Assembly: GCF_048300925.1 (NCBI RefSeq)
Contig: NZ_CP133759.1
DNA: 32,000 nucleotides
Direction: 5' to 3' (one strand)
From: Thermithiobacillus tepidarius DSM 3134
GTDB lineage: Bacteria > Pseudomonadota > Gammaproteobacteria > Acidithiobacillales > Thermithiobacillaceae
The notes beneath the pieces were generated by a model, which saw nothing but the letters and a program-made list of their open reading frames with translations, was not told where the DNA came from and did not search any database. The position numbers were made by a program, and so were the translations under genes. Positions 5,971 through 32,000 of the stretch are shown piece after piece. Position 1 is the stretch's first letter. Each line of letters opens with the position of its first letter.

Positions 5971-7173
5971 ATGAACGAGACCGACAAGTTTGCGCCCCGG
6001 AGCCTGCCCACCCGCGATGCGCTGTTCATCGGCGCGGCCCGCTACCGGCGGCCGAGCTACACCTCCAATCACCCGCTGGCCATCCCGCGGGTCTCCCTGG
6101 CCTTGGATCTCATCAACGCCTACGGCGCCATCACGCCCGCCGAGTACCTGACCGGCCGCAAAGCCAGCAACAAGGAGCTGACCTGGTTCCACGAGCCGGC
6201 CTATATCCAGGCGTTCCAGCGCGCCCAGTTCCGCGGCAAGGTGACCCAGGCCGATCGCGAGCGCTTCCAGCTCGGCAACCTGGAAAATCCGTATTTCCCG
6301 GATTTTTTCGACACGCCGAGCCTCGCCACCGGCTCCAGCATCCAAGGGGCGGAGCAGGTGCTCGCCGGGCGCACCGCCTTCAGTCCGGCGGGCGGCATGC
6401 ACCACGCCGCGCCGCATCAGGCGCGCGGCTTCTGCTATCTCAACGATCCGGCATTGGCTATCATGCGCCTGCGGCGGGCGGGACTGCGGGTGTTGTACCT
6501 GGATATCGACGCGCACCATGGCGACGGGGTGGAAGCCGCCTTCGTCGATGATCCGGAGACTCTGACCGCCTCCATCCACATGGACACGAGCTACGCCTAT
6601 CCCTTCCAGGGCGGCGGCATCGACGACCAGCCGGGTGGTGCCGTCAACCTGCCCCTGCCGCCGGGCATCAACGACGCGGAGTACCGCCTGGCCTTCCACA
6701 GCCTGTGGTCGCGGCTGCTGGAAGGCTTCCGGCCGGACGTGGTGGTGCTGCAGGCGGGGACGGACATCCTGACCCACGATCCCCTGAGCAAATTCCGGGT
6801 CTCCAACGGCGTGTTCTGGGAGGCGGCGACACGCGTCATCGACGAGAGTCCACGGCTGCTGGTGCTGGGCGGCGGCGGCTATCATCCCATCGCCTTGGCG
6901 CGCTGCTGGACCGGCGTGTGGGCGCGACTGACGGGACGCGCTCTGGACGAGCGCCTGCCGGATGCCGCCAGTGCCCTGCTGCGCGCCGTCAACTGGGAGC
7001 TGGACGACGAAGATGCCGAGGAAACCGAGCGGCTGTATACCCACTTGAGCGACCTGCCCAACGACGGCCCGGTGCGGGAAGAAGTGCGGGCGCGCGTGCA
7101 GCGGCTGCTGGACAGTCACCCGCTGCTGGCGCCGCGGGTCATGGCCGTCAGACAGATTGAAAGCAAGGACTGA
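5971..7173 (+). CDS. histone deacetylase-family (AcuC/class I HDAC-like) Zn-dependent deacetylase
   Basis: PAGGMHHA, the zinc-ligand motif LDIDAHHGDG and GGGGYH (catalytic Tyr) are all present. It starts 7 nt after the cbbO stop. Confidence 0.85.
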   Translation: MNETDKFAPRSLPTRDALFIGAARYRRPSYTSNHPLAIPRVSLALDLINAYGAITPAEYLTGRKASNKELTWFHEPAYIQAFQRAQFRGKVTQADRERFQLGNLENPYFPDFFDTPSLATGSSIQGAEQVLAGRTAFSPAGGMHHAAPHQARGFCYLNDPALAIMRLRRAGLRVLYLDIDAHHGDGVEAAFVDDPETLTASIHMDTSYAYPFQGGGIDDQPGGAVNLPLPPGINDAEYRLAFHSLWSRLLEGFRPDVVVLQAGTDILTHDPLSKFRVSNGVFWEAATRVIDESPRLLVLGGGGYHPIALARCWTGVWARLTGRALDERLPDAASALLRAVNWELDDEDAEETERLYTHLSDLPNDGPVREEVRARVQRLLDSHPLLAPRVMAVRQIESKD

Positions 7174-9608: not shown

Positions 9609-10520
9609 ATGGCTGACAGAAGATTGCAAGTCTTTCACACCGTGGCCCGCCTGTTGAGCTTCACCAAGGCGGCCGAAATCCTGCACATGACGCAGCCGGC
9701 TGTCACCTTCCAGATCAAACAGCTGGAGGAGCAGTTTAACACACGTCTGTTTGACCGTACCCACAACCGCATCAGCCTGACCGAGGCGGGCACCATCGTT
9801 TTCGAGTACGCGGAGCGCATCCTCAATCTCTACAGCGAGCTGCAGAACCGGGTGGGCGAAATGACCGGGGACGTGCGCGGCGTGCTCCTGCTGGGCGCGA
9901 GCACCACCATTGCCGAGTACATGCTGCCGCGCGTGCTGGGGGACTTCAAGGAGCGCTACCCTGAGGTGCAGGTGCGCATGCACGTGGCCAATACCGACCG
10001 CATCGTGAGCATGGTGGAAGACAACACCATCGATTTGGGCGTGGTGGAAGCGGCGGTCAGCAACAAGAGCCTGGCCGTGCGCAAGTGCTGCATGGACCAG
10101 ATGGTGGCCATTTTCCCGCCGACCCATTTTCTGGCGCAGCAAAGCAGCGTGAGGGCGGCGGATCTGCTCAATTACGCCTTCGTATCGCGCGAAGAGGGGT
10201 CCGGCACGCGGGAAGTCACCAACGAGTATCTGGCCGCCGCCGGCCTGGACCCCAACGACCTCAACATCACCATGGAGCTGGGCAGCCCCGAGTCCGTCAA
10301 GGGCGCCGTGGAAGGCGGGCTGGGCATTTCCGTGGTGTCGGAAGCGACGGTGCGCAAGGAGATCGCCCTGGGCACGCTGGTGGCGATACCGCTGGAGCCG
10401 CCCCTGGCCCGGCCCTTCCTGTTCGTGTATCAGAAGCAGAAGTTCCGCAGCCATGTGATGGACGAGTTTCTGGAATTCGCCAAGGAGCGCTGCGGCGACG
10501 AGTGGGTCTTCCCGTCCTAA
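9609..10520 (+). CDS. LysR-family transcriptional regulator
   Basis: The N-terminal wHTH is LQVFHTVARLLSFTKAAEILHMTQPAVTFQIKQLEEQFNTRLFDR. The ~300-aa length and a C-terminal substrate-binding-type domain also fit. Confidence 0.9.
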   Translation: MADRRLQVFHTVARLLSFTKAAEILHMTQPAVTFQIKQLEEQFNTRLFDRTHNRISLTEAGTIVFEYAERILNLYSELQNRVGEMTGDVRGVLLLGASTTIAEYMLPRVLGDFKERYPEVQVRMHVANTDRIVSMVEDNTIDLGVVEAAVSNKSLAVRKCCMDQMVAIFPPTHFLAQQSSVRAADLLNYAFVSREEGSGTREVTNEYLAAAGLDPNDLNITMELGSPESVKGAVEGGLGISVVSEATVRKEIALGTLVAIPLEPPLARPFLFVYQKQKFRSHVMDEFLEFAKERCGDEWVFPS

Positions 10521-11290: not shown

Positions 11291-11670
11291 CCGAAGTTGA
11301 GAAAAGACTGCTGCTGATCCTGGCGGATCTCGGCGAGACCGAACAGCGGAGCCTGCTGGATTTCGCGGAGTTTCTGGCGAGCCGGGCCGGTGCGGTGCGG
11401 GCTTTGCCCGCACCCCGGACGCGGGAGCCGGCGCAACCGGATCTGCTCCCGCGTCCCGAGCAGGAAACGGTGGTGGGCGCCATCAAGCGGCTGCGCCAGA
11501 GCTATCCCATGCTGGACCGGCGCAAGCTCCTGAACGAGACCTCCGCGGCCATGTCCAAGCATGCCATCGGCGGCGTCAAGGCGGAGATCGTCATCGACGA
11601 ACTCGAGGAGGTCTTCGCCCGTCATTACACTCTTTACTGCGAAACCTTCTACAGCGCCTCCGACGCGTAG
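11287..11670 (+). CDS. hypothetical protein (127 aa); the N-terminus resembles DUF2281-type helices
   Basis: Its ATG overlaps the upstream stop (ATGA), which suggests translational coupling. LLDFAEFLASR is reminiscent of DUF2281 from memory, unverified. The 3' end overlaps the convergent phoH2 gene by 22 nt. Confidence 0.5.
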   Translation: MTEVEKRLLLILADLGETEQRSLLDFAEFLASRAGAVRALPAPRTREPAQPDLLPRPEQETVVGAIKRLRQSYPMLDRRKLLNETSAAMSKHAIGGVKAEIVIDELEEVFARHYTLYCETFYSASDA

Positions 11671-13034
11671 TCCGCCAGGCGCGAGCGTTCGCCGCGGCGC
11701 AGGGTGATGTGGCCGCTGTGGGGCCAGTCCTTGAAGCGGTCCACCACGTAGGTCAGGCCCGAGGTGGTTTCCGTCAGGTAAGGCGTATCGATCTGGGCGA
11801 TGTTGCCCAGGCAGACGATCTTGGTTTCCGGGCCGGCGCGGGTGACCAGGGTCTTCATCTGCTTGGGAGTCAGATTCTGGGCCTCGTCGATGATGACGAA
11901 CTTGTTCAGGAAGGTGCGCCCGCGCATGAAGCTCAGGGACTTGACCCGGATGCGCTTGCTCAGCAGGTCCTGAGTAGCCTGCCGACCCCAGACCCCGCCG
12001 TCGCCGCTCTGCCCCAGGATCTCCAGGTTGTCCTCCAGCGCGCCCATCCACGGCATCATCTTTTCCTCCTCGGTGCCGGGCAGGTAGCCGATGTCCTCGC
12101 CCACCGGCACGGTGGCGCGGGTGATGATGATCTCGTTGTAGCGCTTCTCGTCCATGATCTGGTGCAGAGCCGCGGCCAGGGTCAGCAGGGTCTTGCCGGT
12201 GCCGGCCTGGCCGAGGATGGACACGAAGTCGATCTCCGGATCCATGAGCATGTTCAGGGCGAAATTCTGCTCCCGGTTGCGGGCGTTGATGCCCCACACG
12301 CTGTGGCGGCTCTGGGTGTAATCCCGGGCGCGCTCGATGATGGCGGCGTTGGGCTCCACCTCGCGGACGATGAAGTTGAAGTCCGGGTCGTCCTCCAGGT
12401 AGAGGAACTGATTGGGATGCCACTGCCGGGTCAGCGGTCCGGTGATGCGATAGAAGGTGCGGCCTTCCTCGCGCCAGGCGGCCACTTCCTTCTCGTGGTT
12501 TTCCCAGAAGTCGGCCGGCACGGCGCACACGCCCGTGTAGAGCAGGTCGGCGTCCTCCAGAGCCTGGTCGGTGGTGTAGTCCTCCACCCGCAGGCCCAGG
12601 GTGCGGCCCTTGATGCGCAGGTTGATGTCCTTGCTGACCAGGATCACGTCACGGTCGGGATGCTGCTCGCGCAAATCCAGCGTGATGGCCAGGATCTGGT
12701 TGTCCACCTTGCCGCCGGCCATGTTGCTCGGCAGTGTGTGGGTGTGGGCGATGGTCTGAAAGTAGAGCCGGCCCTCGGCATGGGGCAGGGGCAGGCCGGT
12801 GTCGATGTCGGCCGTGCTGCCCAGGAGTTCGTCGAGATAGCGGCTGACCTGACGCACGTTGCGGGCGGTTTCGGTCAGGCCCTTCTTGTGGGCATCCAGC
12901 TCCTCCAGGACCACCATGGGCAGCAGGATGTCGTGCTCCTGAAAGCGGAACAGGGCGCTCGGATCGTGCATCAGCACGTTGGTGTCCAGGACGTAGAGTC
13001 TTTTGCGGCTGGCGTCGGGGGAGTCGGATTGCAT
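11649..13034 (-). CDS. PIN domain + PhoH-like ATPase (PhoH2/YlaK type)
   Basis: The N-terminal PIN domain is LYVLDTNVLMHDP...VVLEELD. The PhoH P-loop is LGQAGTGKTLL and the DEAQ-type box is IIDEAQN. I chose the start at ATG 13034 (MQSDSPD...). Confidence 0.85.
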   Translation of the reverse strand: MQSDSPDASRKRLYVLDTNVLMHDPSALFRFQEHDILLPMVVLEELDAHKKGLTETARNVRQVSRYLDELLGSTADIDTGLPLPHAEGRLYFQTIAHTHTLPSNMAGGKVDNQILAITLDLREQHPDRDVILVSKDINLRIKGRTLGLRVEDYTTDQALEDADLLYTGVCAVPADFWENHEKEVAAWREEGRTFYRITGPLTRQWHPNQFLYLEDDPDFNFIVREVEPNAAIIERARDYTQSRHSVWGINARNREQNFALNMLMDPEIDFVSILGQAGTGKTLLTLAAALHQIMDEKRYNEIIITRATVPVGEDIGYLPGTEEEKMMPWMGALEDNLEILGQSGDGGVWGRQATQDLLSKRIRVKSLSFMRGRTFLNKFVIIDEAQNLTPKQMKTLVTRAGPETKIVCLGNIAQIDTPYLTETTSGLTYVVDRFKDWPHSGHITLRRGERSRLADYASEAL

Positions 13035-13062
13035 GATGTCTGCCCTGTACTTGGAATGATCG

Positions 13063-13539
13063 CTAGGGAAGCCGCTTGACGAGATCCAGCATGGCGGCGG
13101 CGTGGCCATCCACCTTGACCTTGCGCTCCACGTGGGCCAGGCGGCCGTCGCGGTCGATGACGAAGGTGCTGCGCTCGATGCCCATGACCTTTTTGCCGTA
13201 CATGTTCTTTTCCTTGATCACGTCGTAGGCGCGGCATGCGGTTTCGTCGACGTCAGCCAGGAGCGGAAAGGGGAAGCCGTATTTTTCAGCGAACTTGCAG
13301 TGGGACTGGATGGTGTCGCGGGAGATGCCCAGCACCTCGGCGTCGGCGCCTTGGAACTCCGGGTACAAGGCGGCGAAATCGCGCCCTTCGGTGGTGCAGC
13401 CGGGGGTGTCGTCCTTGGGATAGAAGTACAGCACTATCTTCCGGCCGCGCAGGTCGGCAAGGCGGATCTGGCGCCCGTCATGGGCGGGCAAGGTGAAATC
13501 CGGTGCGGCGGCGCCGGTTTGCAAAGCGGTGTCGTTCAT
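13063..13539 (-). CDS. bcp: thiol peroxidase Bcp (peroxiredoxin, thioredoxin-dependent)
   Basis: APDFTLPAHDG...VLYFYPKDDTPGCTTE is the Prx active site. SD is ggagggga-ATG. The 359-aa track ORF is a read-through extension antisense to dapA. Confidence 0.85.
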   Translation of the reverse strand: MNDTALQTGAAAPDFTLPAHDGRQIRLADLRGRKIVLYFYPKDDTPGCTTEGRDFAALYPEFQGADAEVLGISRDTIQSHCKFAEKYGFPFPLLADVDETACRAYDVIKEKNMYGKKVMGIERSTFVIDRDGRLAHVERKVKVDGHAAAMLDLVKRLP

Positions 13540-13710
13540 TTCCCCTCCATGTTGTCGCAAGCTCCACAAGTTCCAAGTTAGCCAGCCGCACCGCCCTTGT
13601 CCAGCCCCGGAAGGCCGGCGGATCGGGGCCGATTGCGGGAATTGCCTTGCCAAATCGGGGTAAGGCTCAGTACCATTGCTCTTCATTTGCGACTGGTGGA
13701 GATGCGCTTT

Positions 13711-14586
13711 ATGTTCCAAGGCAGTATGGTTGCCCTGGTGACGCCCATGCAGGACGACGGCACCCTCGACGAGGTCCGTCTGCGCGAGCTGGTGGAGTGG
13801 CACCTGTCCGAGGGCACGGATGCCATCGTGGCCGTGGGAACGACCGGCGAATCCGCCACGCTGAACGAGACGGAACACCTGCGCGCCATCCAGATCGTGG
13901 TGGAACAGGTGCGTGAGCGGGCGCCGGTGATTGCCGGCACTGGGGCCAACGCCACCAGCGAGGCCATCGCGCTCACCACGGCGGCGGCGGAGCTGGGGGC
14001 CGACGCAGCCCTGCTGGTCACCCCCTACTACAACAAGCCGACCCAGGAAGGCCTGTTTCAGCATTATCGCGCCATTGCCCAGGCCTGCCCCCTGCCGCAG
14101 ATCCTCTACAACGTGCCTGGGCGCACCGGCTGCGATCTGCAACCCGCCACCATCGAACGCCTGGCCGCGATTCCCAATATCATCGGGGTCAAGGAGGCCA
14201 CCGGCAACATCACCCGCGCCGAGGAGATCCTGGCCCGCTGCGGCGGGCGCATGGACGTCTATGCCGGCGACGATGCGTCAGCCTTGGCGCTGATGCTGCT
14301 GGGTGCCAAGGGCGTCATCTCCGTCACCGCCAACGTGGCGCCGGGCGACATGGCGCGCATGTGCCGCGCGGCACGCGAGGGCGACCTGGCGACGGCGCGC
14401 ACCCTCAACGACAAGCTGCTGCCCCTGCACGTGGATCTCTTCCTTGAATCCAATCCCATCCCTGTCAAATGGGCGTTGGCGGAGATGGGCCGCATCGGCC
14501 CGATGCTGCGCCTGCCCCTGACCCCGCTCAGCGAAAGCTTGCGGCCCCAGCTCTTGGCGTCCATGCGCCAGGCGGGCTGCCTGTGA
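13711..14586 (+). CDS. dapA: 4-hydroxy-tetrahydrodipicolinate synthase
   Basis: MFQGSMVALVTPM...GTDAIVAVGTTGESATL...YNKPTQEGL...YNVPGRT...GVKEATG. The start is ATG 13711, with ggtggag upstream. Confidence 0.9.
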   Translation: MFQGSMVALVTPMQDDGTLDEVRLRELVEWHLSEGTDAIVAVGTTGESATLNETEHLRAIQIVVEQVRERAPVIAGTGANATSEAIALTTAAAELGADAALLVTPYYNKPTQEGLFQHYRAIAQACPLPQILYNVPGRTGCDLQPATIERLAAIPNIIGVKEATGNITRAEEILARCGGRMDVYAGDDASALALMLLGAKGVISVTANVAPGDMARMCRAAREGDLATARTLNDKLLPLHVDLFLESNPIPVKWALAEMGRIGPMLRLPLTPLSESLRPQLLASMRQAGCL

Positions 14587-16538: not shown

Positions 16539-17846
16539 ATGATCGAACGTTATACCCGCCCGGAAATGGGCGCCCTGTGGACCCAGGAAGCCAAGTATCA
16601 GGCCTGGCTGGACGTGGAGCTGGCCGCCTGTCGGGCCTTGGCGGCCCAGGGCCGGATTCCGGCCGAGGATCTAGCCACCATCGAGGCCAAGGCCGCTTTC
16701 GACGCGGCGCGCATCGAAGAGATCGAACGCGAGGTCAAGCATGACGTCATCGCCTTCTTGACCTCCGTAGCCGAGTTCGTGGGGCCGTCCAGCCGCTTCA
16801 TCCACCAAGGGCTGACCAGCTCCGACGTGGTGGACACCGGCTTCGCCCTGCAATTGAAGCGGGCCGGCGAGCTGCTGCTGCAAGGCATGGACCGTCTCAT
16901 GCGCGCCCTGCACCGCCGTGCCTGGGAACACAAGGACACCATCATGATCGGTCGCTCCCATGGCATCCATGCCGAGCCGGTGACCTTCGGCCTCAAGCTG
17001 GCCGTCTGGTACGCCGAGGCCGGCCGCAACCGGGCACGGCTGCAGGCTGCCATCGACGACGTGGCGGTGGGCATGCTCTCCGGCGCGGTGGGCACCTTCG
17101 CCAACATCGATCCCTCGGTGGAAGAGGCGGTGTGCCGCGAGTTGGGCCTGACCCCCGAGCCGGCCAGTACCCAGGTCATTTCCCGCGACCGCCACGCCCA
17201 TTTTTTCAACACCCTGGCCGTGATTGCCGGCTCCATCGAAAAGATTGCGGTGGAGATCCGCCATCTGCAGCGCACCGAGGTGCTGGAAGCCGAGGAGCCC
17301 TTCACCAAGGGGCAGAAGGGCAGCTCCGCCATGCCGCACAAGCGCAACCCGATCCTGTCGGAGAACCTGACGGGTTTGGCGCGGCTGGTGCGCGGCTATG
17401 CGGGCATGGCCCTGGAGAACATCGCCCTCTGGCACGAGCGCGACATCTCCCATTCCTCCGTGGAGCGGGTGATCGGGCCGGATGCCACCATCACGCTGGA
17501 CTTCATGCTGCATCGGGTGAGCGGGCTCATCGAAAACCTGGTGGTCTACCCCGAGAACATGCTGAAGAATCTCAACCAGATGCACGGCCTCATCTTTTCG
17601 CAGCGGGTGCTGCTGGCCCTCACCGAGAAGGGCGCGCTCCGGGAGGATGCCTACCGCTGGGTGCAGCGCAACGCCATGCGCGTCTGGGAGGCGGGCGAGG
17701 ACTTCAAGTCCCTGCTGGCCCGGGATCCGGACGTGAGCGGCAAGTTGAGCCCGGCCGAGCTGGATGAGCTCTTCAGCCTGGATTACCACACCAAGGAGAT
17801 CGACCGGATCTTCGAGCGGGTGTTCGGGCCGTCCCTTTCCGTGTAA
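16539..17846 (+). CDS. purB: adenylosuccinate lyase
   Basis: [10 protein letters not shown]...; the signature is [11 protein letters not shown]. 435 aa, the short PurB type. Confidence 0.92.
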
Positions 17847-17875: not shown

Positions 17876-18586
17876 ATGCAAAAAGGCGAGCAACTGTACG
17901 AGGGCAAGGCCAAGGTGGTGTACGCCACCGACGACCCCCAGCGCCTCATCCTGCACTTCAAGGACGATACCTCCGCTTTCGACGGCGAGAAGGTGGAACG
18001 CTTGGCCCACAAGGGCGAGGTGAACAACAAGTTCAACGCCTTCATCATGCAGAAGCTGGCGGCGGCGGGCATCCCCAATCACTTCGAGCGCCTGCTCTCC
18101 GAGCGGGAGAGCGTAGTCAAGCGTTTGGAGATGATCCCGGTGGAGTGCGTGGTGCGCAACGTCACCGCGGGCTCCATCTCCCGACGCCTCGGCGTGCCCG
18201 AAGGCATGGAACTCGATCCGCCTACCTTCGAGTTCTTCCTCAAGAACGACGCTTTGCATGATCCCATGGTCAACGAGTCGCACATCCGTGCCTTCGGCTG
18301 GGCCACGGAAGAAGAGGTGGCACGCATGAAGGAGCTCACCTACAGGGCCAACGAGGTCCTGAAGAAGCTCTTTGCCGACGCCGGGCTGATCCTGGTGGAC
18401 TTCAAGCTGGAATTCGGCCGCTTCGACGGCCAGGTGCTGCTCGGCGACGAGTTCAGCCCGGATGGTTGCCGCCTGTGGGATGCGCAGACGCGCGAGAAAC
18501 TGGACAAGGATCGCTTCCGCCGCGGCTTGGGGGGCGTGGTGGAGGCGTATCAGGAGGTGGCGAGGAGGCTGGGGGTGGCGTTGTAG
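17876..18586 (+). CDS. purC: phosphoribosylaminoimidazole-succinocarboxamide (SAICAR) synthase
   Basis: [10 protein letters not shown]...DDTSAFDG...KGEVNN...LVDFKLEFG...[14 protein letters not shown]. 236 aa. Confidence 0.92.
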
Positions 18587-19928: not shown

Positions 19929-22900
19929 ATGCTCCAAATTCGCGGCTCCGCTGCCCTGTCTCCCTTCCGTCTGGACAAGCTGATGTCCGCCCTGCGGGAA
20001 AAAACTCCGCACATCCGCCATGTTTACGCCGAATTCGTCCACTTTGCTGAGTTGGGCGGTGATCTGGGCGCGGATGAGCACATTGTGCTGGAGCGTCTGT
20101 TGACCTACGGCCCCAGGCTGGCGGAGGAGGAGCCCGTCGGGCAATTGTTGCTGGTGCTGCCGCGCTTCGGCACCATCTCGCCCTGGTCCAGCAAGGCCAC
20201 CGACATCGCCCGGCATTGCGGTCTCGAAAAAATCAGGCGCCTGGAGCGGGGCGTGGCCTTCTATGTGCGCAAGGCGGACGAGAGCGCCCTGACGTCCGCC
20301 GAGCGGGCGGCGCTGCTGCCCCTGATCCACGATCGCATGACCGAGATGGTGGTGGACGATCTGGCCGATGCCGAGGGCCTGTTCCGGCACGCCGAGCCGG
20401 CGCCCCTGCAGACCGTGGATGTCCTGAACGGCGGCCGGGCGGCGCTGGCGCAGGCCAATCTGGCCTGGGGCCTGGCCTTGAGCCCGGACGAGATGGATTA
20501 TCTGGTGGAGAATTTCACCCGCATGGGGCGCAACCCCACGGACGTGGAGCTCATGATGTTCGCCCAGGCCAATTCGGAGCATTGCCGCCACAAGATCTTC
20601 AATGCCGAATGGGTCATCGACGGCGAGCGGCAGGAACTGTCCCTTTTCGCCATGATCCGCAATACCCACCGGCAGCATCCCGCGGGCACCCTGTCCGCCT
20701 ACAAGGACAACGCGGCGGTGATCGAGGGCTTCGCCGTCGAGCGCTTCTTCCCCGACCCCGAAACCCAGGGCTATGCTTACCATGCCGAGGATACCCACAT
20801 CCTCATGAAGGTGGAGACCCACAATCACCCCACCGCCATCTCGCCTTTCCCGGGGGCGGCGACCGGGGCCGGCGGCGAGATCCGCGACGAGGGCGCCACC
20901 GGCCGCGGCGCCAAGCCCAAGGCGGGGCTCAGCGGCTTTTCCGTGTCCAACCTGCGCATTCCCGGTGCCGAGCAGCCCTGGGAACAGCCGGCCTACGGCA
21001 AGCCGGAACGCATCGCTTCGGCGCTGGACATCATGCTGGAAGGCCCCATCGGCGCGGCGGCCTTCAACAACGAGTTCGGGCGTCCCAGCATCTGCGGCTA
21101 CTTCCGCACCTTCGAGCAGGCGGTGGCCGGCGAAGTGCGCGGCTATCACAAGCCCATCATGCTGGCCGGCGGCCTGGGCAACATCCGCCCCCAGCACGTG
21201 CAAAAGCGGGAGATCCCGGCGGGCGCCTATCTCGTCGTGCTGGGCGGGCCGGCCATGCTGATCGGCCTGGGCGGCGGCGCTGCCTCCAGCGTGGCCACCG
21301 GCGAGGGCCAGGAGGAGCTGGATTTCGCCTCGGTGCAGCGCGGCAACCCGGAGATGCAGCGCCGCGCCCAAGAGGTGATCGACCGGTGCTGGCAGTTGGG
21401 TGAGGCCAATCCCATCGTGTCCATCCACGATGTGGGGGCGGGCGGCCTGTCCAATGCCCTGCCGGAACTGGTGAACGATGCCGGCCGCGGCGGACGCTTT
21501 CAGCTGCGCAGCGTGCCCAACGAGGATCTGGGCATGTCGCCCATGCAGATCTGGTCCAACGAAGCCCAGGAGCGCTACGTGCTGGCCGTCGGCCAGGAGC
21601 ATTTCGAACGCTTCCGGGCCCTGTGCGAGCGCGAGCGTTGCCTTTATGCGGTGGTGGGCGAAGCCACCGCCGAGCAGCGCCTGGTGCTCGAAGACAGCTA
21701 CTTCCGCAACACCCCCATCGACATGGAGCTGAGCGTGCTGCTGGGCAAGCCGCCGCGCATGACCCGGGTCGTGCAGCGTTTGCCGCGCCCGGCGGTGCCC
21801 CTCGACAGCACCGGCATCGAGCTGCGGGAGGCGGCCTACCGGGTGCTGCGCCTGCCGACCGTGGCGGACAAGCGCTTTCTGATCACCATCGGCGACCGCA
21901 GCGTCGGCGGGCTGGTCTGCCGCGACCAGATGGTCGGCCCCTGGCAGGTGCCGGTGGCCGACGTGGGCGTCACCGCCATGAGCTTTACGGGCTATCGAGG
22001 CGAGGCCATGAGCATGGGCGAGCGCACGCCGATGGCACTGCTCGATCCGGCCGCCAGCGGCCGCATGGCCATCGGCGAGGCGCTGACCAACCTGGCGGCG
22101 GCCCGCGTCGAGCGCCTGGAAGACGTGAAGCTGTCTGCCAACTGGATGGCGCCGGCCGGCCACCCGGGCGAGGACGCCGGCCTCTATGACACGGTCCGGG
22201 CCGTGGGCATGGAGCTGTGTCCGGCGCTCGGCATCGCCATCCCGGTGGGCAAGGATTCCATGTCCATGAAGACGGTCTGGCGCGAGGGCGGGGAGGACAA
22301 GGCGGTCACCGCGCCCCTGTCCCTGATCGTGTCCGCCTTTGCCCGGGTGCCGGACGTGCGCAGGACCCTGACGCCGCAGCTACGCGCCGATCCGCAGACG
22401 GATCTCTTCCTCGTCGACCTCGGCGCCGGCCGCAACCGGCTAGGCGGCTCGGCGTTGGCCCAGGTCTACAAGCAGCTGGGCGACACACCGCCCGATCTCG
22501 ACGATCCGCAGCTCTTCAGAGGCTTTTTCGCCGCCGTGCAGCAGTTGAACGAGGCCGGCTTGGTGCTGGCCTACCACGACCGCTCCGACGGCGGCCTCTT
22601 CGCCACCCTCTGCGAAATGGCCTTCGCCGGGCACTCGGGCCTCGACGTGCAGCTCGACGGCCTGGGCGACGAGCCGCTGGCCGTGCTCTTCAGCGAAGAG
22701 CTCGGCGCCGTGCTGCAGACCCCTCGCGCGGCACGGGAACGGGTGCTGGCCGTGCTCGGTCAGCACGGATTGGCAGCCGTCAGCCACTGCATCGGCGCAC
22801 CCGCGAGCGACGACCGCATCGTTTTTCGCATGGGCGGGCGCGAGGTGCTGGCGGACAGCCGCATCGATCTCCAGCGCGCCTGGTCGGAGACCAGCTACCG

Positions 22901-23816
22901 CATGCAGTCCCTGCGCGACAACCCCAAGTGCGCCCAGGAGGAGTACGATGCCCTGCTGGACGCCGAGGATCCCGGCCTGCATGCTCATCTGAGCTTCGAT
23001 CCCGACGAGGACGTGGCCGCGCCCTATCTCAACCTGGGCACCCGGCCGCGGGTGGCCGTCCTGCGCGAACAGGGCGTCAACGGCCAAGTGGAGATGGCGG
23101 CGGCCTTCGAGCGCGCCGGCTTCGCCGCCGTGGACGTGCACATGAGCGACATCATCGCCGGGCGGGTCAGTCTGCAGGATTTCCGCGGCTTCGTCGCCTG
23201 CGGCGGCTTTTCCTACGGCGACGTGCTGGGCGCCGGCGAGGGCTGGGCCAAGTCCATCCTCTTCAATGCTCGCGCCCGCGACGAGTTCGAAGCCTTCTTC
23301 CAGCGCAGCGACAGCTTTGCCCTCGGTATCTGCAATGGTTGCCAGATGATGTCGAACCTGCACGAGATCATCCCCGGCGCCGAGCTGTGGCCGCACTTCG
23401 TGCGCAACGAATCGGAGCAGTTCGAGGCCCGGCTGGCGCTGGTGGAGGTGCCGGAAAACCCGTCCATTTTCTTCCGAGGCATGGCCGACTCGCGCATGCC
23501 CATTGCCGTGGCCCACGGCGAAGGCCGGGCCGAATTCCGCGATCCGGCGCAACTGGACCAGGCGCTGGCGTCCGGGATCGTGGCCATGCGCTGGGTGGAT
23601 CACCGCGGCCAGCCGACCCAACGCTATCCTTTCAACCCCAATGGCTCGCCCAGCGGCATTGCCGGGCTGACCACGCCCGATGGACGCTTCACCGTTGCCA
23701 TGCCGCATCCGGAGCGCGTGTTCCGGGCGATACAGCACTCATGGCGGCCGGACGATTGGAGCGAGGATGGCCCGTGGATGCGGATGTTCAGGAATGCGCG
23801 CGTGTGGACCCAGTGA
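19929..23816 (+). CDS. purL: phosphoribosylformylglycinamidine synthase (single-chain large PurL)
   Basis: 1295 aa. Motifs include [11 protein letters not shown] and [25 protein letters not shown]. The C-terminal GATase domain has GICNGCQM and HPE. Confidence 0.95.
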
Positions 23817-27368: not shown

Positions 27369-27824
27369 CTAGCCGTTGCCGGTATTCGCCCGCTCGCTTC
27401 TGCTTTCCGGGCGCGGCGGGTAGCGGATGGCCAGGGTACGGGCGCCCACCAGCACGGCCAGGAGCCCGGCGATGGCCAGCAGGTCGGGCCAGGCGAGGCT
27501 GTGGCCGTACAAGCCGATGAGGAGTTCGCGCATGATGAAGACGATGGTGACGTCGGCCAGCACGTGCAGGCGGATGCGATGGAACTCCACGTAGTCGGTG
27601 AAGGTGCGGAACAGCTCGATGAGGACGAAGACGCCGAGCACATTGATGACCAGCTGGGTAACGCCCTTGCCGGCGCTGTCGACCACCGGAAAGATCAGCA
27701 TGAGGTCCATGACCAGCTTGTAGAAGCTGATGGCCAGGGTCACCAGCATGACCAGGATCAGGCCGATGACGAGGATGTCCAGAAGCTGCGCGTAAAGGCG
27801 CATGGTGCGGTTTTTCAGATCCAC
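27369..27824 (-). CDS. psiE: PsiE-family (phosphate-starvation-inducible) membrane protein
   Basis: It has four hydrophobic segments, and VFVLIELFRTF...VTIVFIMRELLI resembles the PsiE family. I chose the GTG start at 27824 (gggagga-N6-GTG). ATG 27803 is an alternative. The track start at 27845 lies inside the upstream terminator hairpin. Confidence 0.55.
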   Translation of the reverse strand: MDLKNRTMRLYAQLLDILVIGLILVMLVTLAISFYKLVMDLMLIFPVVDSAGKGVTQLVINVLGVFVLIELFRTFTDYVEFHRIRLHVLADVTIVFIMRELLIGLYGHSLAWPDLLAIAGLLAVLVGARTLAIRYPPRPESRSERANTGNG

Positions 27825-27879: not shown

Positions 27880-30870
27880 TCAGGCGCCTTGCTTGGCCGC
27901 GCTGCGCCGCAGCCGGGACAGCAGGCGGCGGGCCATCTCTCCGAAGAGCTCCGTCTGCGTCGGGTGCGGATGGATGGCGTGGGCCACCTGCTCCAGGGTC
28001 AGGCCCGCCGACACCATCATGACCGCCTCGCCGATCAGGGTGTCCGCGTGGTCGGCCAGGAAGTGCACGCCGACGATGCGGTGGCTGCTCTTCTCGGCGA
28101 CGATCTTGATGAGGCCGTCGGTTTCGCCGGTCATCATGGCCTTGGCGTCGATGCTCATGGGCACCTTGACTTCGGCGCAGTCCAGGCCCCGGGCCTTGGC
28201 CTGCTCCACGGACAGGCCCACGAAGGCGGCTTCGGGCCGGGTGAAGATCACGCCGCAATCCTTGGCCTCGTCGTACTTGGCCGGGTGGCCGAGCAGGTTG
28301 GAGGCCGCCACGCGGCCCTGCTGGCCCGCCGTGTGCGCCAGCATGAGCCCGCCGATCACGTCGCCGACGGCGTAGATGTGCGGCACGTTGGTGCGGCCGC
28401 CGGCATCCACGGCGATGGCGCCGCGCTCGCCGAGCTGCACGCCGGCGGCGGCCAGATTCAGGCCATCGGTCTGCGGACGCTTGCCGGTGGCCATGAGGAC
28501 CAGATCGCAGTCGAGCCGCTGCTCGCGGCCTTCGCCGTCGGCAAAGCGCACGCGCATGGCGCCGGGCTGGCCGTCGATGGCCTGCACCTTGGCGCTGGTC
28601 AGGATCTGCATGCGCTCCTCGGCGGAGAGCAGCTTCGCCAGGGTGGTGGCGATCTCCGCTTCCACTTCGGCCAGGGGCCGGGCCTGGGCTTCCAGCACGG
28701 TGACCTCGGCGCCGAAGTCGCGGAAGATCTGCGCCATTTCCATGCCGATGGCGCCGGCACCGATCACGCACAGGCGGCGGGGCGGGGAGGCCAGGTTCCA
28801 GACCGTGTCGGAAGTGACGACGCCGCCGCTTTGCAGGCCCTCGGCCGCGCCGGGAATGGGCGGCACGAAGGTCGGGGCGCCGGTGGCGATGACGGCGGCG
28901 CCGAAGCTGATCTCGCCAGCGTCCTTGCCCTCGATGCGGACACCATGGGGGCCGGTGAAGCTGGCGAAGCCTTCGAGCACGGCGATCTTCATGCCCTTGT
29001 CGGTCTTCAGCGCCATTTCGCCGCGGGTCTGCAGGACCTGCTTGCGGTGGGCCTCCAGGCGCTCCCAATCGAGCTCGGGACGGTCGGTGTTCCCAATGCC
29101 CAGCAGAGCGTCATGATGGCGGTCGCGCATGCGGTCGGCGGCCGCGCGCCAAGCCTTGGACGGAATGCAGCCGCGCCACAGGCACTCGCCGCCGGGCAGG
29201 GGGGCATTGTTGATCATGGCCACCTTGATGCCGTGCTCGGCCAGTTCGCGGGCGCAGTCCTCGCCGCCCGGGCCGCCGCCGATCACCACCACCTGATAGT
29301 CGTAGTCGCCCGCCGGGATGGCCGGACCGGGACTGCCGAGCCAGGACTCCGGCTGCTCGATGACGCGCTTGAGATCCACCAGGAAGGCGGCCGCCTCGGC
29401 GCCATTGACCACCCGGTGGTCGGCGGTGATGGTGATGGGCATGCCGCTGGGTCCGGCGGCGGCGATGGCGATGATGGCCGCAGTGCCGGGGGTGACGATG
29501 GCGTCGAATTGGGCGACGCCGTACATGCCCATGTTGGAAACCGTGAAGGTGGGGTTGGCGTACTCCTCGGGAGCCAGGCGGCGCTTGCGCGCCCGTTCGA
29601 CGATGCCGTTCCATTCCTGGTGCAGCGTCTGGACGTCGCGGGCGCCGACATTGCGCAGCACCGGTACCACCAAGCCGCCGCCCTCGGCGGTCACGGCGAT
29701 GCCGATATCCTGGAAGTCGCGCTCGACGATCTTGTCCACCGGCTGATAGGCGGCGTTGACCAGGGGATGCAGCTTGAGCGCCTCGGCGGCGGCCTTGGCG
29801 ATGGCCACGGTCACGGACACGCCGTTGGCCTTGGCGGCGCGGATCAGCGCCTCGGGCTGCACGTTGACGGTCACATGGAAGGTCGGCATGGTGAGGCTCG
29901 CCGTCATGCTGCGGCTGACCGCCTTTTCGATGGCGCTCATGGGCCGGCCTTCGCCGGGCACCTGGATCTCGGGCAGCTCCCAGCCAGCGGGGGCGGCGGC
30001 TGCTTGGCCCGGCCGGGCTTGCAGCACGTCGTTGCCGACGATCAGGCCCTGAGGACCGCTGCCGTTCAGGCCGGCAAGGTTCACATTCAGGCCGCCGGCT
30101 AGCTTGCGCGCGTAGGGCGTGGCGAGCTTGCCCGCCGGGCGCGGAGCCGGCTTGCCGCCGGTCAGGATCGGGGCGGCCGCGGATGCCGGTTTGGATGGCG
30201 CGGCGGAGGACTGGGTTGTCGCCTGGGTTTCCGGCGCCTTGGCCGCGCCAGCCACTTTCACCGACTCGCTGACCACTTGCTCGGGATGATCCACCAGGTA
30301 GCCCATGGCTTCGCCGACGGGCACGACGCTGTCCACGGCGGCCAAGGGGCCGGACAGGTAGCCTTCGCGGAACACCTCCACGTCCATGATGGCCTTGTCG
30401 GTCTCCACGGTGGCGACCACGTCGCCGCGATTGATCTTGTCGCCCGGCTGCTTCTCCCAGGACACCACCACGCCTTCGGTCATGGTGTCGGACAGCTGCG
30501 GCATCTTGATAGTATAGCTCGCCTCCGCCGGCGCAGCGGCGGGCGCGGCAGTCGGGGCCGCGGTGTTGGGGGTGGGCTCGGCCATGGCCACGGCGCCGCC
30601 GGGAGCCACTTGGCCCACTTCCTCCGGCGTGGCCACCAGGTAGCCCATGGCTTCGCCGACGGGCACGACGCTGTCCACGGCGGCCAAGGGGCCGGACAGG
30701 TAGCCTTCGCGGAACACCTCCACGTCCATGATGGCCTTGTCGGTCTCCACGGTGGCGACCACGTCGCCGCGATTGATCTTGTCGCCCGGCTGCTTCTCCC
30801 AGGACACCACCACGCCTTCGGTCATGGTGTCGGACAGCTGCGGCATCTTGATGACATAAGCTTCGGCCAT
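27880..30870 (-). CDS. fused dihydrolipoyllysine-residue acyltransferase (E2, two lipoyl domains) and dihydrolipoyl dehydrogenase (E3), 996 aa
   Basis: Residues ~1-521 form the E2 part. It has two lipoyl domains (..TVETDKAIMDVEV..), Ala/Pro linkers, an E3-binding domain (ATPYARKLAGGLNVNLAGLNGSGPQG) and a catalytic core ending ADHRVVNGAEAAAFL. From residue 522 (nt 29307 downward) there is a full E3: VVIGGGPGGEDCA (FAD), GGECLWRGCIPSK (redox disulfide), VIGAGAIGMEMAQ (NAD) and HPHPTQTE (His-Glu). The frame is continuous across a junction linker of ~12 aa. Confidence 0.85.
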   Translation of the reverse strand: MAEAYVIKMPQLSDTMTEGVVVSWEKQPGDKINRGDVVATVETDKAIMDVEVFREGYLSGPLAAVDSVVPVGEAMGYLVATPEEVGQVAPGGAVAMAEPTPNTAAPTAAPAAAPAEASYTIKMPQLSDTMTEGVVVSWEKQPGDKINRGDVVATVETDKAIMDVEVFREGYLSGPLAAVDSVVPVGEAMGYLVDHPEQVVSESVKVAGAAKAPETQATTQSSAAPSKPASAAAPILTGGKPAPRPAGKLATPYARKLAGGLNVNLAGLNGSGPQGLIVGNDVLQARPGQAAAAPAGWELPEIQVPGEGRPMSAIEKAVSRSMTASLTMPTFHVTVNVQPEALIRAAKANGVSVTVAIAKAAAEALKLHPLVNAAYQPVDKIVERDFQDIGIAVTAEGGGLVVPVLRNVGARDVQTLHQEWNGIVERARKRRLAPEEYANPTFTVSNMGMYGVAQFDAIVTPGTAAIIAIAAAGPSGMPITITADHRVVNGAEAAAFLVDLKRVIEQPESWLGSPGPAIPAGDYDYQVVVIGGGPGGEDCARELAEHGIKVAMINNAPLPGGECLWRGCIPSKAWRAAADRMRDRHHDALLGIGNTDRPELDWERLEAHRKQVLQTRGEMALKTDKGMKIAVLEGFASFTGPHGVRIEGKDAGEISFGAAVIATGAPTFVPPIPGAAEGLQSGGVVTSDTVWNLASPPRRLCVIGAGAIGMEMAQIFRDFGAEVTVLEAQARPLAEVEAEIATTLAKLLSAEERMQILTSAKVQAIDGQPGAMRVRFADGEGREQRLDCDLVLMATGKRPQTDGLNLAAAGVQLGERGAIAVDAGGRTNVPHIYAVGDVIGGLMLAHTAGQQGRVAASNLLGHPAKYDEAKDCGVIFTRPEAAFVGLSVEQAKARGLDCAEVKVPMSIDAKAMMTGETDGLIKIVAEKSSHRIVGVHFLADHADTLIGEAVMMVSAGLTLEQVAHAIHPHPTQTELFGEMARRLLSRLRRSAAKQGA
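30291..30510. repeat. 220-bp direct repeat, copy A (encodes lipoyl domain 2)
   Basis: Checked base by base, it is identical to 30633-30852. The offset of 342 bp keeps the frame. Confidence 0.95.
30633..30852. repeat. 220-bp direct repeat, copy B (encodes lipoyl domain 1)
   Basis: Identical to 30291-30510, while the flanking linker sequences diverge. Confidence 0.95.
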
Positions 30871-31023: not shown

Positions 31024-31995
31024 TTACTTGCCGAGCATCCGCAGCACCGCATGCACCACTTGCGAGGCATTGGGAATGGCGGCTTTTTCCAGCTTGTGAT
31101 TGTAGGGAATGGGCACGTCGGCGGCGTGGATGCGCACCGGGGCGGCGTCCAGCTCGAAGAAGGCCTCTTCGTTGATAATAGCGATCACTTCGGAGCCCAC
31201 GCCGCACGGTGCCTCGTCTTCCTCCACCACGATGGCGCGGTGGGTCTTGGCCACGCTGGTCTTGATGGCGGCGCGGTCCAGCGGCTTCAGGGCGCGCAGA
31301 TCGACCACTTCGCAGTCGATGTTGTGATGCTTGGCCAGGAACTCGGCGGCTTCCAGCGCCCAGTGCACGCTGATGTTGTAGCCGAACAGGGAGACGTCCT
31401 TGCCGGGACGGATCACCTCGGCGCCTTCCAGGGGCGTGAAGTATTCCTCGTCCGGCACCTCGCCTTTCATGTTGTACATGAGTTCGTGTTCGATGATCAC
31501 CACCGGGTCGTCGCAACGTACGGCGCTCTTCAGCAGGCCGTAGGCGTCGCGGGGATCGCGGGGAGTGACCACGCGCAGGCCGGAAACGCCCATGAACACT
31601 TTCTCCATGCGCGCCGAGTGCTGGGCACCGAGCTGGTGGGCGGTGCCGCCGGGCATGCGGACCACCACCGGGGCCTTGATGCGGCCGCCGGACATGTAGT
31701 GGACCTTGGCGGCCACGTTGATGATCTGATCCATGGCCAGCCAGGCGAAATTGACGCTCATGATTTCGATGATGGGACGGCAGCCGATCATGCTGGCGCC
31801 AATGCCGATGCCGGTGTAGGAGTTTTCGGAGATGGGCGTGTCGATGATCCGCTCGGGACCGTATTTGGCGTAGAGGCCCTGGGTGGCCTTGTAGGTGCCG
31901 CCGGCCACGCCGATGTCCTCGCCCATGGCGAAGACCAGGGGGTCGCGGGCCAGCTCTTCATCGTGGGCCCGCTGAATGGCCTGCCAGTACATCAT
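31024..31995 (-). CDS. 2-oxoacid (pyruvate/acetoin-type) dehydrogenase E1 component beta subunit; the 5' end may run past the window edge
   Basis: YWQAIQRAHDEELARDP.VF.MGEDIG..GG.YK.T.GL..KYGPERIIDTPISE is the classic E1-beta N-terminus. A C-terminal transketolase-C-like domain is present. The ATG at 31995 is only 5 nt from the window end, so the true start is uncertain. Confidence 0.85.
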   Translation of the reverse strand: MMYWQAIQRAHDEELARDPLVFAMGEDIGVAGGTYKATQGLYAKYGPERIIDTPISENSYTGIGIGASMIGCRPIIEIMSVNFAWLAMDQIINVAAKVHYMSGGRIKAPVVVRMPGGTAHQLGAQHSARMEKVFMGVSGLRVVTPRDPRDAYGLLKSAVRCDDPVVIIEHELMYNMKGEVPDEEYFTPLEGAEVIRPGKDVSLFGYNISVHWALEAAEFLAKHHNIDCEVVDLRALKPLDRAAIKTSVAKTHRAIVVEEDEAPCGVGSEVIAIINEEAFFELDAAPVRIHAADVPIPYNHKLEKAAIPNASQVVHAVLRMLGK

Positions 31996-32000
31996 CTCGC

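Follow-up and report, generated by a model that had tools for sequence, protein, structure and literature searches.

Can the acyltransferase (E2) and the dihydrolipoyl dehydrogenase (E3) of a 2-oxoacid dehydrogenase complex be one and the same polypeptide and, if so, what kind of complex would such a chain build? The question is raised by a gene in the window (here the whole 32,000-nucleotide stretch of Thermithiobacillus tepidarius DNA that was analysed), which reads as a 996-aa frame with an ATG start and no internal stops. A profile search of the protein gives the Pfam order Biotin_lipoyl (twice), E3_binding, 2-oxoacid_dh, Pyr_redox_2 and Pyr_redox_dim. The gene and its parts are the following:

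27880..30870 (-), complete E2-E3 fusion gene, 996 codons plus the stop codon at 27880-27882
30634..30861 (-), lipoyl domain 1 (aa 4-79), Pfam Biotin_lipoyl, lipoyl-lysine K45 in a DKA motif, AF2 pLDDT 82-92
30292..30516 (-), lipoyl domain 2 (aa 119-193), Pfam Biotin_lipoyl, lipoyl-lysine K159
30022..30126 (-), peripheral-subunit-binding domain (PSBD, aa 249-283), PF02817 E3_binding, E 2.2e-09, above cutoff
29338..29946 (-), E2 acyltransferase catalytic core (aa 309-511), Pfam 2-oxoacid_dh PF00198, E 1.9e-47
29299..29337 (-), connector G512-D524 (GSPGPAIPAGDYD), of equal length in 117/121 homologs
27883..29298 (-), complete dihydrolipoyl dehydrogenase (E3) module (aa 525-996), by Pfam, NCBIfam and fold match
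29167..29184 (-), E3 redox-active disulfide C563-LWRG-C568, family-invariant GGECLWRGCIPSK versus the canonical GGTCLNxGCIPSK
27934..28254 (-), E3 dimerisation/interface domain (aa 873-979) with the His969-Glu974 dyad (HPHPTQTE), Pfam Pyr_redox_dim

The catalytic elements of both enzymes are all present and invariant across the fusion family, and the linker between them is very short, so that the claim of the first-pass annotation that E2 and E3 form a single chain stands; the 1:1 E2:E3 ratio that it also proposed is a necessary consequence, since both enzymes are on one polypeptide. A Shine-Dalgarno sequence, AAGGTG (30880-30875), is found 4 nt before the ATG. Scans for expression signals were uninformative, with one weak promoter-like match overlapping the ribosome-binding-site region of the gene and two terminator-like matches inside the lipoyl repeat, on the wrong strand.

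This repeat is formed by the two lipoyl domains, the DNA of the second being a 238-nt direct repeat of the first (30273-30510 versus 30615-30852, 97% identical). The ETDKA motif around K45 and K159 is invariant in the fusion family, and in 118 of 120 homologs it occurs twice. In the PSBD, R255 is invariant and position 276, where the canonical GxxGR[IV] has its Arg, is Arg in none of the 121 family members, which is circumstantial support for a retained PSBD that may serve only E1; the loss cannot discriminate between E1 and E3, because in Geobacillus the two are reportedly bound by the same PSBD residues. The acyltransferase core carries the motif D484-H485-R486-V-V-N489-G, with H485 as the catalytic residue. 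We considered DHRVVNG as an anomaly and rejected it, as Azotobacter vinelandii E2p also has an Asn (Asn614) at the matching position. The core is ca. 23 residues below the canonical size, owing to family-specific deletions of ca. 13 aa before DHR and ca. 10 aa after EALIR. These deletions and the overall divergence explain why the E2 half scores 320 bits against the NCBIfam equivalog TIGR01349, under its cutoff of 445, with the PDH acetyltransferase still the best E2 model.

The E3 half contains a FAD motif (GGGPGG, aa 531-536) and a NAD motif (GAGAIG, aa 704-709) followed by the NAD-type acidic residue E727, all of them invariant in the family. Pyr_redox_2 covers aa 525-852 (E 6.9e-70), and the 26 best matches of the predicted model to the PDB by Foldseek are all lipoamide dehydrogenases, with target-normalised TM scores of 0.80-0.85. 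The score against the equivalog TIGR01350 (387.6 bits) is below the cutoff of 408.8, but this is still the best family, MerA being next at 319.6. The E3 half is, on these motifs and profiles, a predicted NAD+-dependent dihydrolipoamide dehydrogenase. Among 20 further ORFs of the window Pfam detects no free E3.

Could the long frame be produced by a missed stop or a frameshift that merges two separate genes? High-GC DNA does yield long spurious ORFs in other frames, but the fusion ORF is no such case. A 996-aa protein 99% identical to the query is encoded in two independent MAG assemblies (GCA_049325015.1 and GCA_040757235.1), and the ORF runs unbroken across the E2/E3 junction, in the same frame, in all 84 related loci, which come from different species. 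Besides, the junction residues are invariant and GC3 (ca. 0.9) is even along the whole ORF, junction included. The junction at 29250-29360, for which verification had been advised, is thus intact and we consider the chance of an artefact negligible. The representatives that seem to be split are contig-end truncations. Three candidates for unfused members, which resembled split E2 and E3 genes, were rejected: P0122 is labelled partial and stops mid-connector on a 4-kb contig; P0127 stops past the connector on a 1.9-kb contig; and P0123 is a singleton whose N-terminus is a connector remnant (IPEGDWD). Being truncated or connector-bearing, they provide no evidence for a true unfused lineage.

The fusion is no rarity, and on this point the first-pass annotation has to be corrected: at least 458 species-representative genomes gave confirmed matches, and the architecture is already present in public databases. 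The carrier lineages, among the matches listed, are Acidithiobacillia, Chromatiales, Ectothiorhodospiraceae, Thiohalomonadales and some Burkholderiales, and the best 120 homologs are all fusions of 884-1140 aa with 63-99% identity. In several hundred species at least, the operon normally takes this fused form. The fusion is ancient, monophyletic and under purifying selection; in support of its antiquity, neither half exceeds 40-44% identity with an unfused E2 or E3 representative. Database names cover one half only (“FAD-dependent oxidoreductase”, “pyruvate dehydrogenase”, “dihydrolipoamide dehydrogenase”), and the genome papers of T. tepidarius (PMC5037610) and A. ferrooxidans (PMC2942843) mention PDH but not the fusion. 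Full-text literature searches, which yielded papers on ubiquitin, APOE or ordinary PDH, turned up no work that describes or characterises a naturally occurring E2-E3 fusion, and the fold and sequence matches in the PDB include no solved structure spanning both halves, which agrees with the initial impression that none had been characterised. The family is real, widespread, mis-annotated and uncharacterised in the literature found.

To which complex do these two activities belong? The genes on both sides of the fusion are:

31024..32000 (-), PDH E1-beta gene, separated by 153 nt from the fusion gene, on its upstream side
27369..27824 (-), PsiE-family gene, the next gene downstream

The first three codons of E1-beta and the entire E1-alpha gene are past the window end. 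The E1-alpha of a near-identical MAG scores 417.2 bits against the equivalog TIGR03182 (PDH_E1_alph_y), over the cutoff of 393.85, and E1-beta 376-379 bits against the PDH subfamily PRK09212 (cutoff 321). In 63 of 64 loci the two genes directly precede the fusion gene, and this operon structure is common to Acidithiobacillia and Ectothiorhodospiraceae. The Acidithiobacillia loci conserve the position of the PsiE-family gene and the gammaproteobacterial locus does not; the PsiE-family product is probably outside the complex. An alpha/beta-type E1 is also common to branched-chain (BCKDH) and acetoin dehydrogenases (AcoABC-type), and together with the E2 score under the PDH equivalog cutoff this could suggest a different 2-oxoacid or acetoin dehydrogenase. 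We find this very improbable in view of the E1-alpha and E1-beta scores and of the best E2 model; in addition, the carriers that are obligate autotrophs require PDH for acetyl-CoA (PMC5037610; PMC2942843) and the genome paper of T. tepidarius reports no alternative E2 (PMC5037610). The reading that we favour, with a probability of roughly 80%, is that the fusion provides the E2 and E3 of a PDH complex with a heterotetrameric alpha/beta E1, encoded by an operon E1alpha-E1beta-E2E3, and that E3 would have become part of the scaffold. The function is ordinary; the quaternary architecture is probably unusual.

The joint between the two enzymes bears on this architecture. The C-terminal “knob” helix of E2 is P507-E-S-W510-L511; P507 follows the catalytic His at +22, exactly as in human E2p, and the actinobacterial-type insertion is absent. 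The chain has the hydrophobic W510-M/L511 at the canonical E2 end, where 24-mer and 60-mer cores have a free 3-10 helix that docks into the neighbouring trimer, yet it runs on into E3, with Gly in 106 of 121 members at the position equivalent to the last canonical E2 residue. Initially a linker of about 12 residues had been described; that it is short is right, but the string given for it, PESWLGSPGPAIPAG, is not pure linker, as it contains the knob helix P507-L511, and the true connector is approximately G512-A520/D524, i.e., 9-13 residues. E505, P507, W510, P519 and G521 are invariant in 121/121 and I518 is kept in 119/121. In the AF2 model the pLDDT of the connector is 64-68, versus 30-37 for the true flexible inter-domain linkers, and the segment formed by core and E3 has a pTM of 0.72, a suggestive value in a predicted model where E3 is only 68% of the segment. 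Fixed in length, Pro/Gly-rich and with invariant residues, the connector looks like a rigid joint and not like a flexible tether.

In these complexes the lipoyl domains shuttle acetyl groups and electrons among E1, recruited by the PSBD, and the active sites of E2 and E3. The E2 active site is formed solely between subunits of a trimer and that of E3 solely in a dimer, because the His-Glu dyad is supplied by the partner chain. Each fusion chain would then have to be in a three-fold and a two-fold oligomer simultaneously, and with only ca. 9 Pro/Gly-rich residues (30 Å or less) expected between the inter-trimer knob of E2 and the first strand of E3, the E3 dimers would be placed on the two-fold positions that lie between E2 trimers, or beside them. 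The result would be a complex with a fixed 1:1 E2:E3 ratio where E3 belongs to the scaffold and is no longer a peripheral subunit that can be exchanged, and the PSBD would be free for E1. We infer that such an architecture is unlike the canonical one. The volume of 60 E3 modules (computed as ca. 3.9e6 Å^3) exceeds the cavity of a 60-mer, which we take to be ca. 0.9e6 Å^3, and therefore either the chain exits the shell or the core is non-canonical. In the Geobacillus 60-mer the C-terminus of E2 faces the core interior (bioRxiv 10.1101/2020.08.22.262634). The last two residues of E2 are known to make the contacts between trimers, assembly can fail when the C-terminus is extended, and a trimeric mini-PDHc has an activity equal to that of the full complex (PMC10849603). 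The most specific version of the proposal, to which we give clearly less than even odds, is a natural “trimer-dimer fusion” cage where rigidly jointed E3 dimers act as two-fold struts that reinforce or replace the knob-in-hole contact, with a core geometry and a fixed 1:1 E2:E3 ratio that would set it apart from the cores known so far (cubic, dodecahedral, actinobacterial trimeric), and with a PSBD dedicated to E1 only.

There are two other possible explanations for the fused module. One would be that E3 simply hangs by a short leash on an E2 core of the canonical cubic or icosahedral kind, so that the fusion just secures co-expression and stoichiometry in an otherwise ordinary PDH. All the canonical domains are kept, the PSBD and the hydrophobic knob residues included, and engineered C-terminal fusions to E2p still form 60-mers (bioRxiv 10.1101/2020.08.22.262634). 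Moreover, there are divergent fusions, three from named archaeal MAGs, with variable linkers of 10-35 residues, indicating that an E2-E3 fusion as such needs no precise joint. However, a passive leash would be expected to drift as the inter-lipoyl linkers do, instead of having a fixed length in 117/121 homologs and invariant Pro, Gly and Trp residues; ca. 9 residues are too short for a 53-kDa dimerising module to move freely, this module is too big for the core interior to which the E2 C-terminus points, and the E2-core deletions are specific to the family. We regard the leash as rather unlikely. The other alternative, improbable in our opinion, is that the E3-like module mainly re-oxidises other lipoyl proteins (sHdr LbpA, GcvH), or is a different disulfide reductase, with PDH as a secondary role. 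The family is, among the matches listed, concentrated in sulfur-oxidising lineages, and Cao et al. 2018 propose that the bacterial sHdr-LbpA borrows a 2-oxoacid dehydrogenase E3 (PMC6067878). The score under the lipoamide_DH equivalog cutoff, the unusual CLWRGC, an invariant WRAAADRxRDRxHD helix and the presence of the same E3 subtype in a lipoyl-E3-CMD/AhpD-like fusion (P0124) go in the same direction. Against this, lipoamide dehydrogenase is the best-scoring family, the module has every catalytic residue of E3 as well as the acidic residue of the NAD type, it is covalently joined to an E2 that has two lipoyl domains, its gene lies in an operon with PDH E1 (63/64 loci), and the window contains no sHdr or lbpA genes.

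The proposed scaffold role of E3 also has a metabolic side. T. tepidarius is without E1o and has a horseshoe TCA (PMC5037610), and the fusion may be tolerated in mostly obligate autotrophs of this kind because, without 2-oxoglutarate dehydrogenase, E3 need not be shared among complexes. Counting against this rationale, Ectothiorhodospiraceae BW-2 has sucA 1.7 kb from the operon, i.e., some carriers are not strictly of the “horseshoe” type. If the fused E3 were the sole E3 of the cell, GcvH and the sHdr-LbpA of sulfur oxidisers would rely on a PDH-bound enzyme. Furthermore, as annotation covers one half only, metabolic reconstructions of Acidithiobacillus, Thermithiobacillus, Ectothiorhodospiraceae and symbionts can miss E2 or E3. 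The architecture of PDH is an active structural question, involving its stoichiometry, the reason for large cores and the competition of E1 and E3 for the PSBD. With E3 fixed 1:1 on every E2 chain at an inter-trimer contact residue, this family is a natural experiment, and a structure would tell whether a 2-oxoacid dehydrogenase can employ E3 as a scaffold element and what the PSBD does once E3 recruitment is unnecessary.

Like the canonical PDH with alpha/beta E1 (Geobacillus stearothermophilus, mitochondrial or alphaproteobacterial type), the fusion operon has three activities, the gene order E1alpha-E1beta-E2, the E2 domain order lipoyl-PSBD-core and the fold and catalytic residues of E3. 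In the canonical complex, however, E3 is separate and exchangeable, whereas here it is fused to the E2 C-terminus by a conserved joint of ca. 9-13 residues, the E2 core is ca. 23 residues shorter, the PSBD is without its canonical Arg and E3 has CLWRGC as its redox motif. OdhA/Kgd of Corynebacterium and Mycobacterium, where the E2o catalytic domain is on E1o (“two-in-one”), is likewise a natural covalent fusion of two components in a non-canonical core lineage (PMC8146983; PMC10849603), but its partners are E2 and E1, it has no lipoyl domains of its own (they are borrowed from E2p) and the junction is unrelated in sequence. The lipoyl-domain-E3 fusions (Neisseria P64K, Cupriavidus PdhL, Mycoplasma Lpd), with many representatives of 560-600 aa and PDB entries 1bhy, 1ojt and 5u25, also carry extra PDH-complex modules at the E3 N-terminus; in them it is a lipoyl domain alone, on a flexible linker, without PSBD or E2 catalytic core, and core assembly is therefore unaffected. 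The engineered E2p-L4P nanoparticles (PDB 8eqn) have a dimeric “locking domain” on the E2p C-terminus, at the two-fold inter-trimer interface (bioRxiv 10.1101/2020.08.22.262634); they are artificial and their locking domains, of 100 residues or fewer, are inside the 60-mer, while their natural counterpart, an enzyme of 484 residues, is too large to be housed there. Finally, the divergent E2-E3 fusions (P0136, P0143, P0232 and relatives, including Promethearchaeota (Asgard) and Bathyarchaeota MAGs) have the same domain order, lipoyl-PSBD-core-E3. They differ in their low identity (29-36%), a single lipoyl domain, a full-length E2 core and variable linkers of 10-35 aa, and they keep the canonical DHRxxDG, GGTCLNxGC and PSBD Arg; to judge from these differences, they evidently represent independent origins of the same kind of fusion.

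The first-pass annotation had claimed a complete dihydrolipoyl acetyltransferase (E2) and a complete dihydrolipoyl dehydrogenase (E3) on one 996-aa chain of Thermithiobacillus tepidarius DSM 3134. This held up, as the Pfam domains and all the catalytic residues of both enzymes are present in a single frame. The gene and the Pfam domains of its product are as follows:

27880-30870, minus strand: fusion gene, one 996-codon frame from ATG (ORF list)
30880-30875, minus strand: Shine-Dalgarno sequence AAGGTG ahead of this ATG
N-terminal part of the protein: two lipoyl domains
aa 249-283: E3_binding, or PSBD (peripheral-subunit-binding domain)
aa 309-511: 2-oxoacid_dh, the E2 catalytic core (E 1.9e-47)
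aa 525-852: Pyr_redox_2 of E3 (E 6.9e-70)
aa 873-979: Pyr_redox_dim of E3

Read from the sequence, the lipoyl lysines K45 and K159, the E2 catalytic H485 (within DHRVVNG) and the E3 motifs (GGGPGG, C563/C568, GAGAIG with E727, and H969/E974) are all invariant in the family. The Asn of DHRVVNG has a counterpart in Asn614 of A. vinelandii E2p. The best NCBIfam models were TIGR01349, PDH acetyltransferase, for the N-terminal half (320 bits) and TIGR01350, dihydrolipoyl dehydrogenase, for the C-terminal half (387.6 bits), both scores lying somewhat under the equivalog cutoffs. GC3 is ca. 0.9 over the entire fusion ORF, junction included, and the window has a G+C content of ca. 66%, which together with its nearest named relative fits a Thermithiobacillus-like member of the Acidithiobacillia (compare PMC5037610). 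At the domain level the protein is a pyruvate dehydrogenase (PDH) E2 followed by a PDH E3, which by their motifs should work like their separate equivalents, and the predicted function is an ordinary one.

The uninterrupted junction is no artefact. The best match (P0001, 996 aa, 99% identical) is encoded by two independent MAG assemblies, and a stop-to-stop ORF takes in the catalytic motif of E2 as well as the disulfide of E3 in 84 of the 84 loci examined. The best 120 matches of a word-indexed protein search were all 884-1140 aa long, with both domain sets and 63-99% identity; named sources among them are Thermithiobacillus plumbiphilus (81%), many Acidithiobacillus and Igneacidithiobacillus species, Ectothiorhodospiraceae, Thiohalospira, Thiotrichales and one Solemya gill symbiont. 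When only the junction (161 aa, from the E2 end into the E3 start) was searched against one genome per species, at least 458 matches were confirmed, and the 80 loci listed among these all match over the junction. The architecture is not rare. An exhaustive search of 1.84 billion representatives placed the whole family in a single cluster (P0121) at 50% identity, with unfused representatives reaching at best only ca. 40% identity for E3 and 43-44% for E2, from which it follows that the fusion is old and that its halves have co-diverged. Hundreds of these sequences are public, named for one half only. We found no solved structure covering both halves and no description of a natural E2-E3 fusion in a literature search whose coverage lacked most subscription journals, in line with the first-pass annotation, which knew of no biochemical or structural characterisation. 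The fusion is thus real, widespread, mis-annotated and uncharacterised.

Apparent cases of split E2 or E3 versions of the family were rejected as truncations. Five Chromatiales/Gammaproteobacteria MAGs (loci L039, L063, L066, L070 and L083) have DHRVVYG, with Tyr replacing Asn/Asp, and a connector one residue shorter; by sequence they seem to form a sub-clade in which an active-site residue is altered. In MAG WH4.bin22 (JAKACQ01) a fusion gene spanning the junction occurs on each of two separate contigs (L010 and L013), with 82% and 80% identity to the query junction, which means either a paralogous pair or a mixed bin.

Of the 64 loci with sufficient flank, 63 have genes for E1-alpha and E1-beta directly upstream of the fusion gene and in the same orientation, and loci of Acidithiobacillia and Ectothiorhodospiraceae share this operon. 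Here one of the E1 genes is only partly in view:

31024-32000: E1-beta gene, running past the window end, with E1-alpha beyond the window

In a near-identical MAG, E1-alpha scores above the equivalog cutoff for PDH E1-alpha, and E1-beta above its cutoff for the PDH subfamily, which supports pyruvate as the likely substrate of the complex. On the other side, 55 nt downstream of the fusion gene, is a gene for a PsiE-family (phosphate-starvation-inducible) membrane protein (27369-27824, minus strand), a position kept in Thermithiobacillus-like MAGs and A. sulfuriphilus, and not in Ectothiorhodospiraceae bacterium BW-2. No second E3 or lipoyl protein was found in 1-24000 of the window, where the genes are housekeeping ones:

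5971-7173, plus strand: histone-deacetylase-family protein
9609-10520, plus strand: LysR
11649-13109, minus strand: PhoH/PIN
13063-14142, minus strand: AhpC/TSA
16539-17846, plus strand: adenylosuccinate-lyase-type protein, likely purB
17876-18586, plus strand: likely purC, from Pfam on the near-identical MAG
19929-23816, plus strand: likely purL, from Pfam on the near-identical MAG

Obligate autotrophs with a horseshoe TCA cycle are without 2-oxoglutarate dehydrogenase (PMC5037610; PMC2942843), so that sharing E3 between complexes becomes unnecessary, a plausible reason for the fusion. This rationale fails for some carriers, because BW-2 (CP032507) has sucA by the operon. The gene (E1o, 935 aa; locus L003, 12674-15481) lies 1.7 kb downstream of the E2-E3 gene, with no sucB or lpd adjoining, and its position raises the question of whether E1o uses the fused E2-E3 there, which would resemble the hybrid complex of Corynebacterium.

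The joint between the two enzymes is tight. Residue 644 of the 647 of human E2p aligns with query 509, G512 is the counterpart of the final canonical E2 residue, and solved E3s start at query 521-526. The distance from the catalytic His to P507 is +22 in the query and in human E2p alike, in a gap-free alignment, and therefore W510-L511 sit where canonical E2 has its C-terminal hydrophobic "knob". Connector length is identical in 117 of 121 family members; E505, P507, W510, P519 and G521 are invariant (121/121), I518 and D524 are each conserved in 119, and position 511 is M, L, I or A. The consensus W-[ML]-G-P-x-G-P-A-I-P-E-G-[DE]-[WY]-D runs directly into the first E3 strand, leaving by our estimate a free connector of ca. 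9 Pro/Gly-rich residues that spans 30 Å or less. AlphaFold2 gave the connector a pLDDT of 64-68, against 30-37 for the genuine flexible linkers. The core and E3 modelled alone reached pLDDT 82.8 and pTM 0.72, higher than E3 on its own, at 68% of the residues, could account for even if well folded, and hence the model hints at a defined inter-domain arrangement, which is suggestive but not conclusive.

Other traits are specific to the family. Compared with human E2p and the more remote fusions described below, its E2 core is without ca. 13 residues just before the catalytic DHR and ca. 10 after EALIR. The E3 signature comprises GGGPGGEDCAR, GGECLWRGCIPSK and HPHPTQTE. Directly after the redox disulfide comes a near-invariant charged helix, WRAAADRxRDRxHD (aa 575-590, window 29101-29148), which has no counterpart in canonical E3s and is the least confident part of the modelled E3 module (pLDDT only 50-68). 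Through this helix the module may contact the E2 core or the lipoyl domain.

The two lipoyl domains are encoded by a direct repeat of 238 nt with 97% identity (30273-30510 and 30615-30852), and the two protein copies differ at only 2 of 76 aligned residues, which suggests that the duplication is recent or that gene conversion is still under way. Two lipoyl domains are found in 118 of 120 homologs, one in T. plumbiphilus (884 aa) and three in P0003 (1140 aa), although short-read collapse or expansion of the repeat could also shift the apparent number.

Everything that the E2 and E3 half-reactions require is encoded, together with a PDH-type E1 and a conserved joint. E2 active sites sit between trimer subunits, E3 must dimerise to be active, since its His-Glu dyad works across the interface, and the final E2 residues form the inter-trimer "knob-into-hole" contact. 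Every chain would then belong to both a 3-fold (E2) and a 2-fold (E3) oligomer with a knob-to-E3 distance of 30 Å or less, which would put the E3 dimers on, or next to, the two-fold positions where E2 trimers are linked. By our volume estimate, sixty such E3 modules occupy ca. 3.9 × 10^6 Å^3, versus ca. 0.9 × 10^6 Å^3 for the cavity, whose diameter was reportedly given as ca. 118 Å by Izard et al. in 1999. They exceed the cavity, and so the chain either exits the shell by the two-fold contact or belongs to a non-canonical core, for example one in which E3 dimers bridge the trimers, one of D3 hexamers or a wider cage. By either route E3 would be a fixed 1:1 scaffold component, and the PSBD would be left to E1. 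In that domain R255 is invariant, but none of the 121 family members has Arg where canonical GxxGR[IV] has it (V, E, A, I or L stands there instead), and the residue that we take to match Geobacillus R139 is Gly or Ala. This loss is compatible with a changed set of partners, but it is no proof, because in Geobacillus the same basic PSBD residues are said to bind both E1 and E3 (as ascribed to Mande in 1996, Jung in 2002 and Frank in 2005). Concerning the knob, deletion of two of the last E2 residues yields trimers that still make up a mini-PDHc of full activity, and extending E2 by a C-terminal peptide has been reported as a steric block to assembly (PMC10849603).

The exhaustive search also returned ca. 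12 full-span fusions of 838-928 aa at 29-36% identity. Three of them (P0136, P0143 and P0232) come from Promethearchaeota (Asgard) and Bathyarchaeota MAGs, and P0129-P0134, P0161 and P0182 are unnamed relatives. In these fusions a single lipoyl domain is followed by PSBD, full-length core and E3, with canonical motifs and linkers of 10 to 35 residues, whereas the tight invariant joint is found only in the proteobacterial family. Such motifs and variable linkers argue that the architecture arose more than once, and in Archaea it seems to have done so independently. A further singleton from a Logan assembly (P0124, 797 aa) combines a lipoyl domain, an E3 of the CLWRGC subtype found in the fusion family (50% identity) and a C-terminal CMD/AhpD-like domain (PF02627) with CEYC; by analogy it may be a one-chain version of the mycobacterial Lpd-DlaT-AhpD peroxidase-reductase relay. 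Among known systems, the nearest precedent for joining two catalytic components is the actinobacterial OdhA/Kgd, an E2o-E1o fusion (PMC8146983), and for additions to E3 it is the lipoyl-E3 proteins. The nearest structural analogue is engineered E2p with a locking domain, Geobacillus 60-mers in which C-terminal dimeric domains of 100 residues or fewer occupy the two-fold interface on the inner side of the shell (bioRxiv 10.1101/2020.08.22.262634).
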